Shown: positions 3,302 to 26,324 of the stretch, piece by piece
Layout of the letters: every line of letters starts with the position of its first letter
Position numbering within the stretch: position 1 is the first letter of the stretch
Assembly: GCF_003334255.1 (NCBI RefSeq)
Contig: NZ_QOWU01000056.1
Length of the DNA: 38,759 bases
Origin: Escherichia coli
Lineage (GTDB): Bacteria > Pseudomonadota > Gammaproteobacteria > Enterobacterales > Enterobacteriaceae
Strand: one strand, 5' to 3'
Program-made: the position numbers and the translations under genes
The notes under the pieces: generated by a model
Database searches by the model: none
The model's input: only the letters and a program-made list of their open reading frames with translations
Told to the model about the DNA's origin: nothing

Positions 3302-4231
3302 TCACCTCTGCCTGTCTAAAAATGCGTCGATCTCTTCACGCCACGGTACGGAAGGTTGTGCGCCTTTACGTGTTACGGCAATCGCAGCGGCAGCATGGGC
3401 AAAACGAATCGCCTCTGGCAATGGTTTTTCTTCCAGCAATGCCGTGATTAACGCACCGTTAAAGGTATCTCCGGCAGCAATGGTATCGACAGCCTGCACC
3501 CGGAATCCAGGAACGCGCTGACCTTCACCATTCACGCTAGCCCATACACCACGACTTCCTAAAGTAATCAGTACAGTACGGATACCTTTTTCATGCAGTA
3601 CCTGCGCCGCCTTCGCTGCATCTTCATCATTTTCAACACGAATACCGGTGAGCTTTTCTGCTTCCGTTTCGTTTGGCGTAATAATGTCCACCAGCGCCAG
3701 CAGTTCGTCAGGAAGTTCGCGAGCCGGAGCCGGGTTAAGCGCAACGATAGTCTTATTTTGATGGGCGATTTTCGCCGCTGCCATCACACTTTCGAGTGGT
3801 GATTCCAGCTGCATTAATAATGCTGACGCGTTGGCAATACGCTCACGTTGCGCTTCCACCAGCGCCGGGGAAAGGGCAGCATTAGCGCCGGCATGAATAC
3901 CGATGACATTCTCACCTTCGCCATTAACAAAAATCAGCGCCACACCTGTTGATTCGCCTTTGATCACGCTGACCGGAGTAATATCAATGTTATCAGTGGC
4001 GAGCTGCTGGCGAACGCTCTCACCAATGCTGTCATCACCCGTACAGGCAATAAACGCGATATTCGCACCGCTACGCCCAGCAGCCACAGCCTGATTCGCG
4101 CCTTTGCCGCCAAATGCAACCTGATAGTGGTTACCGGTTACGGTTTCGCCTGGAGTAGGAAAAGATTGAAGATTAAGAATGTGGTCAGCATTAATGCTGC
4201 CAAGAACAACGAGGCTGCCTGCGTTTTGCAT
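3302..4231 (-). CDS. rbsK: ribokinase
   Basis: ORF track gives 318 aa from a GTG at 4258; recognised RbsK begins MQNAGSLVVLGSINADH at the ATG at 4231 (309 aa); PfkB-family motifs. Confidence 0.9.
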   Translation of the reverse strand: MQNAGSLVVLGSINADHILNLQSFPTPGETVTGNHYQVAFGGKGANQAVAAGRSGANIAFIACTGDDSIGESVRQQLATDNIDITPVSVIKGESTGVALIFVNGEGENVIGIHAGANAALSPALVEAQRERIANASALLMQLESPLESVMAAAKIAHQNKTIVALNPAPARELPDELLALVDIITPNETEAEKLTGIRVENDEDAAKAAQVLHEKGIRTVLITLGSRGVWASVNGEGQRVPGFRVQAVDTIAAGDTFNGALITALLEEKPLPEAIRFAHAAAAIAVTRKGAQPSVPWREEIDAFLDRQR

Positions 4232-4356
4232 ATTCGGGATGTCCATAAAATGCGCCACCGTGTTAGGGTGGCGCGTGCCCTGCTTTTCTTTATATTACAC
4301 GTTCATCTGTCGATGACGTATTTATGTCACCATCAGGTCATACAACCTGATTAAAA

Positions 4357-5247
4357 CTACTGCTTAACAACCAGTTTCAGATCAACCGGATACTTAGCCT
4401 GAACTTTCTCGCCTTTCAGCACTTTATCTGCGGTTTCGACGCCTTTCGCGCCAATCTGATCGGGTAGCTGAGCGATAGTCGCTGCTAGTTTGCCATCATT
4501 CACCGCTTTTTCGCCATCCGGTGTACCGTCAAATCCGACGACCATCACATCCGATTTACCGGCAGTTTGCAGTGCGCGCAGCGCGCCCAGCGCCATTTCA
4601 TCATTCTGCGCGAATACAGCCTGAACATCCGGATGAGCGGTCAACAGGTTCTGCATTACGTTCAAACCTTTAGTGCGATCAAAATCTGCTGGCTGGCTGG
4701 CAAGAACATTAAACTTGTGAGCAGCAACGGCCTGCTGGAAGCCTTCGCCACGTTCACGGGCTGCGGATGTACCAGCAATGCCTTGCAGCTCGATAACTTT
4801 GGCACCTTCACCCGCTTTCTTCGCGATGTAATCACCAGCGATTTTGCCGCCCAGTACGTTATCAGAAGCAATGTGGCTCACCACTTCACCTTTCGTTGCC
4901 TGGCGGTCAAGAGTGATAACCGGGATGTTCGCCTGGTTAGCCATCTTCACAGCATTACCCACTGCGTCGGAGTCGGTCGGGTTAATCAGCAGAATTTTTG
5001 TGCCGCGAACGGTTAAGTCCTGCACGTTCGCCAGCTCTTTCGCCGGGTTGTTCTGGGAGTCCAGCACCACCAGGTTATAGCCAAGTTTATCCGCCTCTTT
5101 CTGCGCGCCATCTTTCAGCGATACAAAGAACGGGTTGTTAAGCGTGGAGACCACCAGCGCGATGGTGTCTTTTGCCATCGCATTCGCACTGACGGTGGCG
5201 CTTAGCGCAACAGCGGAAACCAGGGTAGCCAGTTTTTTCATGTTCAT
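4357..5247 (-). CDS. rbsB: ribose ABC transporter periplasmic binding protein
   Basis: 296 aa starting [23 protein letters not shown] (signal peptide); ORF track has a 2-codon upstream extension. Confidence 0.93.
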
Positions 5248-8204: not shown

Positions 8205-8340
8205 ACCCACAGTTTAATCCTGACTGAGTTGGGAAAACCATCGTGACGTTACGGAAATGTGATCAACCTCGAAACGTTTTACATGGTGATTAACCATGAA
8301 AACAAAAACGCCCCCTTATGAAGAAAGGAGGCGTCTGGCG

Positions 8341-10209
8341 TTAGATTTCGACCTGAGTACCCAGTTCGATAACCCTGTTTGGCGGGATTTCAAATTGATC
8401 TGGTGCACGCAGCGCATTACGTTGCAGCAGCAAGTACAGCTTGCCGCGCAGACGCAAATACCACGGGCGTTTGCCGAGGATCAACGACTCATGCGACATA
8501 AAGAAGGAGGTTTCCATCATCCGGCAACTTAATCCTTCCAGACCGCAGCGGTGGAAAACTTCTTCTACGTTTGGCGTTTCTCGCCAACCATAACTTGCCA
8601 CCACGCGCCAGAAAGTGGGCGACAGTTGTTCAATCTGTACCCGACGGACGTTATGGACATATGGAGCGTCTTCGGTGCGCAGAGTTAACAGAATCACCCG
8701 CTCATGCAATACCTTGTTATGTTTAAGGTTATGCATCAGCGCAAAGGGAATGACGTTGATTGCACGCGACATATACACCGCGGTCCCGGGCACGCGAACA
8801 GGCGGTGATTTCTCCAGCGAAGCAATCATCGCTTCCAGAGAGTTACCATGTTCATGCATCCGCCGCAGCAAGCGGAAACGCTCGCTCTTCCAGGTGGTCA
8901 TCACGATAAACATCACAGTACCGAGGCTCAATGGCAACCAGCCGCCGGAGAGCAGTTTATCGAGGTTAGCGGTGAACAATGGAATATCGACACAAAGGAA
9001 AGCAATCAGGATCAGCGCAACAAAATACTTATTCCAGTGCCAGTTCTGACGTGCCACGGTAGTCGAGAGAATAGACGTCAGCACCATGGTTCCGGTCACC
9101 GCAATCCCGTACGCCGCCGCCAGGTTGCTGGAGTGCTCAAAGCTGACAATCACAATCACGACCGCGACATAGAGCATCCAGTTCACAAACGGAATATAGA
9201 TTTGCCCTGACTCCATTTCGGAGGTGTGAATAATGCGCATCGGCGACAAATATCCCAGACGTACCGCCTGACGCGTCAATGAGAAGACGCCAGAGATAAC
9301 CGCCTGCGAGGCAATTACCGTCGCCAGTGCGGCGATGATCAGCAGCGGGATCAGCGCCCAGTCCGGTGCCAACAGGAAGAACGGGTTCTTAATCGCTTCC
9401 GGGTTCTTTAACAACAGCGCTCCCTGACCGAAGTAATTAAGGGTCAAGGAAGGTAATACGACGGTGAACCACGCCAGGCGAATAGGGAACTTACCAAAGT
9501 GCCCCATATCAGCATACAGCGCCTCGACCCCCGTAATCGACAACACCACTGCCCCTAATGCAATAAAAGAAACCGTTTTGTATTCAAGGAAGAAATGCAC
9601 CGCCCACATTGGATTCAGCGCATGCAGCACTTCCGGGTTAGCAATAATGCTACGTAACCCCAGTCCTGCCAGAATCAAAAACCAGGTCAGCATGATCGGC
9701 GCAAACAGCTTACCGACCATAGCCGTGCCATGTTTTTGAATCATAAATAATAAAGTGAGAACGATAATTGAGAGGGGAACTATCCAGGTATCCAGCTGCG
9801 GGGCGACGATTTCCAGACCTTCAATGGCTGACATCACCGAAATAGCGGGTGTTATGACGACTTCACCATAGAAAAAGCTGCCGCCGATTAGCCCCATAAT
9901 CACCAGCATTGATGTGGTTCGCGCCGACGTATTACGCCCGGCAAGCGACATCAACGTCAGGATCCCCCCCTCACCGGCGTTATCTGCCCGCATCACGAAG
10001 GTGAGATATTTAATGGAAACCACAAAGATTAGCAGCCAGAAGATCAGCGATAAAAAGCCAAACACGGCATCGCGTTCAACGCCAAAACCAAACTGGCCGG
10101 ACAAACATTCACGAAGTGTATATAACGGGCTGGTACCAATATCGCCGTAGACAACTCCAATCGCCGCGAGGGTAATCGCGGGCAATGATTGCTTATTATC
10201 AGTGCTCAT
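8341..10209 (-). CDS. kup: KUP-family potassium uptake transporter
   Basis: 622-aa ORF, hydrophobic N-terminal two-thirds plus hydrophilic C-terminal domain; synteny next to rbsD. Confidence 0.95.
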
Positions 10210-17781: not shown

Positions 17782-17844
17782 CGCATTAAAAATGCCTGGT
17801 AAGCACCCGCTTACCAGGCAACGCATCAAGAACAGGTAATCACC

Positions 17845-23209: not shown

Positions 23210-23259
23210 CGTCTGGCGGCTTGCCTTAGGGCAGGCCGCAAGGCATTGAGGAGAAGCTC

Positions 23260-25532
<2,273 letters not shown>

Positions 25533-26028: not shown

Positions 26029-26324
26029 GTGTGACCCGTCCTGAATAGCGTTCACATAGATCCTGCTGATATAAAACCCCCCTGTTTTCCTGTTTATTCA
26101 TTGATCGAAATAAGAGCAAAAACATCCACCTGACGCTTAAATTAAGGTACTGCCTTAATTTTCTGCAGACAAAAGGCGTGACGATGGTCGAAAATGGCGC
26201 TTTCGTCAGCGGGGATAATCCGTTATTGAACAATTTATCCTCTGTCCATTTCACGATGAAAAAAATGTAGTTTTTTCAAGGTGAAGCGGTTTAAATTCGT
26301 TCTCAAATTACAGTCAGGACGCGT

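Follow-up and report, generated by a model that had tools for sequence, protein, structure and literature searches.

The stem-loop between rbsB and rbsK of Escherichia coli is the 3′ end of the small RNA RbsZ and very probably a leaky terminator

Results

The junction analyzed here lies between rbsB, encoding the ribose-binding protein, and rbsK, encoding ribokinase, in a stretch of 38,759 nt of E. coli DNA (contig NZ_QOWU01000056.1 of assembly GCF_003334255.1), hereafter the window, in which both genes and all other features of Table 1 are read from the minus strand. The rbsB stop codon TAG occupies 4359..4357 and the rbsK ATG 4231..4229, leaving a spacer of 125 nt that holds two hairpins, one immediately after the rbsB stop codon and the other, the subject of this study, ending 20 nt before the rbsK AUG (4231). 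At the place of the first, a TCAGG...CCTGA hairpin with a variable inner sequence was recognized by eye in most Enterobacteriaceae spacers. A Shine-Dalgarno-like triplet, GGA, stands at 4244..4242 before rbsK, and GGAC is kept approximately 10 nt upstream of the rbsK ATG in the alignment of related loci described below (alignment A1). An open reading frame at 3302..4258 with a GTG start was rejected as an artefact, the annotated rbsK start being 4231.

Table 1. Features at the rbsB-rbsK junction (window coordinates)
Feature	Position	Strand	Basis or detail
rbsB CDS (ribose-binding protein), upstream gene	4357..5247	-	mapped MG1655 and RefSeq annotation
Full-length rbsZ, b4804, 234 nt	4247..4480	-	exact match to NC_000913.3 3937045..3937278
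Upstream 8-bp hairpin AUCAGGUU-GUAU-GACCUGAU, inside the RbsZ body	4332..4351	-	MFE and centroid structures
RybB-seed complementary site	4276..4296	-	core AAAGAAAAGCAG at 4291..4280; pairs with RybB nt 1-22, one bulge
RbsZ/rbsDACB terminator stem-loop	4252..4274	-	minus-strand sequence, fold energy, pair probabilities, covariation
Short tail AUUUUAU	4245..4251	-	mapped and annotated 3′ end at 4247, the final U of the run
rbsK CDS (ribokinase), downstream gene	3302..4231	-	MG1655 annotation transferred to window coordinates

The window is collinear with positions 3,933,000-3,940,000 of MG1655 at all sampled 40-mers, and a 301-nt query around the hairpin found 100% identity in many RefSeq E. coli chromosomes, in each case between annotated rbsB and rbsK. 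The spacer was present in 5,399 of 5,426 complete E. coli genomes, with at least 99% identity in 5,300 records. A GC-rich extragenic palindrome 3′ of a periplasmic binding-protein gene stands in the classic location of a REP element, and it could accordingly be proposed that the hairpin is a dispersed palindrome of this type which stabilizes the upstream mRNA. Identity as a REP element is refuted by copy number, in that the hairpin occurs once in the window and, for a 135-nt spacer query, the median number of places in an E. coli genome is one; moreover, the RepRanger table of REP elements and RITs labels rbsZ as RIT and not REP, and across Enterobacterales the element keeps its orthology and gene context, unlike a dispersed repeat. 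We therefore give this explanation practically no credence.

Read on the minus strand, the 5′ arm of the stem, GCGCCACC (4274..4267), and the 3′ arm, GGUGGCGC (4259..4252), form eight perfect pairs, seven of them G-C, around a 7-nt loop, CUAACAC (4266..4260). The stem is followed by A4251, UUUU at 4250..4247, A4246 and U4245, that is, by four consecutive U and five U in seven bases, a tract that is short and passes simple scans. An earlier sequence-only reading of the window had described a perfect 8-bp GC-rich stem at 4252..4274 followed by AUUUUAU, and its coordinates proved exact. The hairpin alone has a fold energy of -15.2 kcal/mol, each of its pairs has a probability of 0.98-1.0 in the local ensemble, and it was the first-ranked terminator-like site in a 12-kb scan. 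Under a strict criterion (a perfect stem of at least 8 bp with at least 7 G-C pairs, a loop of 3-8 nt and 4 or more T among the 7 bases that follow) two sites were counted in the 38.7-kb window, against zero in 40 shuffles that preserved dinucleotides, and the fold of the rbsB-rbsK spacer had a z of -3.67 and was better than those of all 200 of its own shuffles. These results confirm that the hairpin is no chance feature.

Two further terminator-like structures were seen in the window. One, the other site under the strict criterion, is at 17793..17820 on the minus strand and reads TGCCTGGTAAGC-GGGT-GCTTACCAGGCA followed by TTTTTAAT. The other is a 12-pair hairpin, AGACGCCTCC...GGGGGCGTTT, at 8306..8336 on the minus strand, followed by TTGTTTT and positioned just 3′ of a 622-aa open reading frame (8341..10209, kup) and upstream of rbsD.

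The identity of the element is given by the MG1655 annotation. NC_000913.3 annotates at 3937045..3937278 the ncRNA rbsZ (b4804, "small regulatory RNA RbsZ"), all 234 nt of which are identical to window positions 4480..4247 on the minus strand, with the flanking rbsB and rbsK collinear as well. The RNA starts inside the rbsB coding sequence and ends in the hairpin plus UUUU (...GGUGGCGCAUUUU / ...GCGCCACCCUAACACGGUGGCGCAUUUU), and the hairpin is thus the terminal stem-loop of a known sRNA. Bar et al. 2021 (PMC8175672) list RbsZ from 3,937,045 to 3,937,278 in the class "intergenic in operon". In Shigella flexneri, Peng et al. 2011 obtained a northern band of approximately 230 nt from between rbsB and rbsK, which they named cssrG and whose 3′ boundary was drawn from the prediction of a Rho-independent terminator. 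As the RbsZ terminator the hairpin is already known, and in E. coli there is nothing new in it. It looks unannotated in typical records because RefSeq (PGAP) annotations mostly give rbsB and rbsK only. RbsZ has no family in Rfam 15: a search of the whole window at gathering thresholds gave no family at the hairpin, and a permissive scan of 4150..4550 gave only chance-level matches (GibS, 18 bits against a gathering score of 115, and adapt33_2). The sole match at gathering thresholds was elsewhere, a full-length match to the enterobacterial sRNA STnc410 (RF02060) at 26084..26241 on the minus strand, with 188 bits against a gathering score of 50.

The 3′ end of the RNA has also been mapped. Supplementary file 1 of Adams et al. 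2021 (eLife, PMC7815308) gives curated Term-seq 3′ ends of MG1655 under three growth conditions, and among these is an end at 3937278 on the plus strand, with flanks TAATATAAAGAAAAGCAGGGCACGCGCCACCCTAACACGGTGGCGCATTTT|ATGGACATCC, which corresponds to window position 4247, the fourth U of the tract. Scores at this coordinate were 84,576 and 107,544 among the matches listed, and the coordinate prefix was present three times. When the published coordinate is placed on the window the mapped end is inside the U tract, 5 nt past the stem. The sequence-only reading had proposed Term-seq as a check and expected 3′ ends at approximately 4245; a strong end at 4247 had in fact already been published. The supplementary list of regions of Rho termination includes none whose coordinate begins with 393727, which is weak negative evidence. 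A weaker Term-seq 3′ end (score 1,296) was reported in the same source at 3937163 on the plus strand, equivalent to window position 4362 on the minus strand, five nt before the end of the rbsB stop codon. This second end could be the upstream product of the cleavage that makes the 5′ end of RbsZ-S, which would then measure approximately 115 nt.

Directly 5′ of the stem is a site complementary to the seed of the sRNA RybB, whose sequence was taken from the MG1655 annotation. The core AAAGAAAAGCAG, which has a single exact match in the window, is perfectly complementary to RybB nt 5-16. The duplex over 4296..4276, with one bulged A, has an energy of -23.7 kcal/mol, the second best of 7,746 31-nt tiles from both strands (mean -8.6, sd 3.2). 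Pairing was scored with the seed only, RNAduplex of full-length RbsZ against RybB giving very long interior loops that were uninformative. The 3′ boundary of the box is 2 nt before the stem, which it does not invade, and the arrangement is therefore the usual one of sRNAs derived from 3′UTRs, a seed and then a terminator. The best RybB-seed duplex of the window (-25.6 kcal/mol) was found at 23241..23271 on the plus strand, across the start codon (23260) of a 287-aa open reading frame; it depends on G.U pairs, is interrupted by an internal loop, and probably arose by chance.

Related loci were collected by a scan for RbsB with one genome per species, which gave 80 Enterobacterales loci, with the rbsK start anchored on the motif LVVLGSIN. 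In alignment A1 a GC-rich hairpin is found 18-27 nt upstream of the rbsK ATG in approximately 60 distinct sequences. When a 10-pair version of the stem was scored over these sequences, 92% of cells were paired and 8 of the 10 pairs had compensatory changes on both sides, as exemplified by GCGCCGUCA/UGACGGCGC in Phytobacter and GCGCCGC/GCGGCGC in Cedecea-like and Serratia sequences. These figures were not equalled in any of 500 shuffles, and the paired fraction fell to 31-58% when the partner columns were displaced by 1-3. A GCGCCAC/GUGGCGC stem is near-invariant (columns 26-33 and 51-58; e.g. loci L060, L075, L029 and L077). In the complete spacers of 23 Enterobacteriaceae the hairpin stem was the only consensus helix detected by RNAalifold, and AAGAAAAG, the RybB box, was invariant in all 23; a RybB seed duplex of -18 kcal/mol or better was obtained in approximately 49 of the 60 sequences.

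Conservation of the U-run was a different matter. The longest T-run in the 8 nt past the stem was 4 in 8 of the 60 sequences, 3 in 16, 2 in 19 and 1 in 17, so that 36 of the 60 related species have a post-stem run of at most two U. Tails without a U-run include CUCUCAGAUG in Enterobacter, where the sequence at the site is CUCUCAGA, ACUCAAAC in Cedecea, and ACUUUGAC in Salmonella and Citrobacter. Klebsiella has GCUUUCC at the site. In Dickeya, Serratia marcescens, Pseudescherichia vulneris and Yersinia nurmii the stem is kept at the same distance from rbsK without the RybB box, and in Dickeya, Serratia and Pseudescherichia the U-run is missing as well, with the stem still 18-27 nt from the rbsK AUG.

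Some spacers have been remodelled by inserted sequence. That of Pectobacterium betavasculorum (L064:2388-2660) carries an insert of approximately 190 nt (...AATCCCCAGGAGCTTACACAAGTAAGTGACTGGGGTGAG...) upstream of a retained RbsZ-like box and stem, and this insert resembles an ERIC-type repeat and is a candidate for one. In several Yersinia species (L071, L073, L074, L076) other inserted palindromic sequence stands in place of the module.

Discussion

The evidence from structure, annotation and the published 3′ end makes it very probable that the hairpin with its AUUUU is a Rho-independent-type terminator, leaky in action, which forms the common 3′ end of the rbsDACB mRNA and of the sponge sRNA RbsZ. 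In E. coli the stem and AUUUU would terminate a fraction of transcripts, or at least set their 3′ end, and the released rbsDACB mRNA and RbsZ would both carry the RybB box and the terminal stem-loop. RbsZ itself comprises a 234-nt form from a promoter inside rbsB and a shorter RbsZ-S processed from the rbsB 3′UTR, with a shared 3′ end. The box of 12-15 nt directly 5′ of the stem pairs with the 5′ seed of RybB, an envelope-stress sRNA, a pairing through which RbsZ sponges RybB and reduces its level. ProQ and Hfq, chaperones that bind RNA 3′ ends, are expected to use the terminal stem-loop and its short U tail as their handle, direct contact being presumed, and the structure may also block 3′ exonucleases.

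Published accounts of RbsZ are consistent with such a role. RbsZ is described as arising from the rbsB 3′UTR and sponging RybB, its overexpression resulting in less RybB and more ompC mRNA. RbsZ-S is reported to be processed from the rbsDACB/rbsB transcript and the longer RbsZ to come from a separate promoter, and removal of RybB by RbsZ is reported to relieve the repression of rbsB (bioRxiv 10.1101/2023.08.28.555190). Inactivation of RybB by RbsZ is described as Hfq-dependent and as involving RNase III, while ProQ on the same duplex blocks degradation. RbsZ is also reported as a ProQ target and as an RNA whose level responds to RhsFI in EHEC, the RbsZ-RybB contact is stated to have been recovered by TRIC-seq, and for the RNA in cells northern blots and RIL-seq have been published.

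Termination at the hairpin must be incomplete, since rbsK and rbsR can be reached only by transcription through it. The 20-nt gap between the stem and rbsK is too short to house a separate rbsK promoter, and no promoter-like site was found in it. In addition, a dCas9 roadblock in rbsB lowers rbsK mRNA (PMC10342112), a polar effect that indicates co-transcription through the hairpin; this CRISPRi polarity was the only result found in the literature on termination efficiency or on rbsB/rbsK transcript ratios. The transcripts not ended at the hairpin would run on into rbsK and rbsR. A short U tail is expected of a leaky terminator and of a 3′ end associated with ProQ rather than one purely of the Hfq type, and the AUUUU tail may fit both descriptions. 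The proportions in which 3′ ends come from true termination and from exonucleolytic trimming, and the efficiency of termination, are matters on which we can only infer.

An alternative explanation is that the 3′ end at 4247 results mainly from processing, in which transcripts read through, are cut downstream and are then trimmed by exonucleases back to the GC-rich stem, a course of events that is compatible with some termination. This corresponds to the second option of the sequence-only reading, in which the hairpin is a 3′ stabilizer, here of rbsDACB and RbsZ. Three observations speak for processing: E. coli has a weak U-run (AUUUUAU), and most genera with the stem have none; the distance of 18-27 nt between stem and rbsK AUG is maintained even where U-run and RybB box are both absent; and rbsK needs transcription through the hairpin (PMC10342112). 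Against it, the E. coli 3′ end is within the U-run and 5 nt past the stem, as intrinsic termination predicts, and two published surveys (RepRanger; Peng et al. 2011) class the hairpin as a Rho-independent terminator. We regard processing as the main source of this end as unlikely, but it stays live because Term-seq cannot separate termination from trimming and because the U-run is poorly conserved.

Another explanation would be a regulated attenuator that adopts either a terminator or an antiterminator fold in response to a signal (e.g. ribose, a protein or an sRNA) and so sets the expression of rbsK and rbsR relative to rbsDACB. The location would suit such a device, with a highly expressed gene for a binding protein before the hairpin and further genes after it, and Enterobacter-type sequences have a short alternative hairpin, GUGGCAUACGCCAC, that overlaps the 5′ arm. 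In E. coli, by contrast, the terminator pairs form almost without competition in the ensemble, and with the 3′ arm blocked the best fold reaches only -4.5 kcal/mol as against -18.7 kcal/mol. The consensus of the 23 Enterobacteriaceae contains no conserved alternative helix, no Rfam family reaches threshold, and the RybB site stops short of the stem, leaving pairing with the sRNA outside it. A switch of this kind is therefore highly improbable, and the attenuator suggested by the sequence-only reading, insofar as regulated switching was meant, finds no support given an alternative fold 14 kcal/mol weaker. What held of that reading was 3′-end formation with partial termination; what it missed was the sRNA RbsZ with its RybB box. 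Differential expression of rbsB and rbsK through the hairpin, which it also proposed, is a putative consequence.

If the preferred reading of a leaky terminator is correct, a single terminator does three jobs: it ends the abundant rbsDACB message, releases a sponge for RybB, and lets polymerase through to rbsK and rbsR. RbsZ would in this way link ribose uptake to envelope-stress control via RybB.

The comparison across species raises a separate question about what is conserved. Since the U-run is poorly conserved, canonical intrinsic termination cannot be the conserved property of the stem, and since the stem persists in species with neither RybB box nor U-run, its conservation is not explained by a sponge or a terminator role. 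Tentatively, the stem may be an old primary element to which termination and the RybB sponge are later additions, a possibility that we put forward as a doubtful one. Were it true, in most Enterobacterales the stem could act as a barrier to 3′ exonucleases, as the end-point, bound by a protein (e.g. ProQ), of a processed rbsB 3′UTR, or as a non-canonical terminator without a U-tract, and E. coli would have acquired its AUUUU tail in its own lineage. Conservation from Escherichia to Pantoea, Erwinia and Pectobacterium extends to the RybB box and the stem but not to the U-run, and one may ask by what route the 3′ ends of RbsZ-like RNAs arise in those genera.

Among known systems, the E. coli element studied here is the same thing as RbsZ (b4804; Melamed et al. 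2020), earlier described in Shigella as cssrG. RaiZ, SdhX, MalH, CpxQ and NarS are reported to resemble RbsZ in having a seed a few nt 5′ of the terminator hairpin of the parental mRNA, in occurring as a long and a processed short form, and in binding ProQ and/or Hfq. Unlike these RNAs, RbsZ is positioned within an operon, with rbsK starting 16 nt past its 3′ end, so that its terminator must be read through, and it sponges another sRNA rather than mainly targeting mRNAs. Other sponges of RybB, FtsO among them, are likewise described as pairing with the RybB 5′ seed and lowering the level or activity of RybB, but they have different genomic origins and a different formation of the 3′ end; compared with FtsO, overexpression of RbsZ is reported to have the stronger effect on RybB and on ompC mRNA. 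The REP elements between malE and malF are intra-operon stabilizer hairpins. Like the RbsZ stem they are stable stem-loops 3′ of a periplasmic binding-protein gene, and in both cases the structure could shield the upstream mRNA segment, to the advantage of the binding protein over distal genes, whereas the RbsZ stem differs in being single-copy, in having a U-run with a mapped 3′ end, and in its sRNA function.
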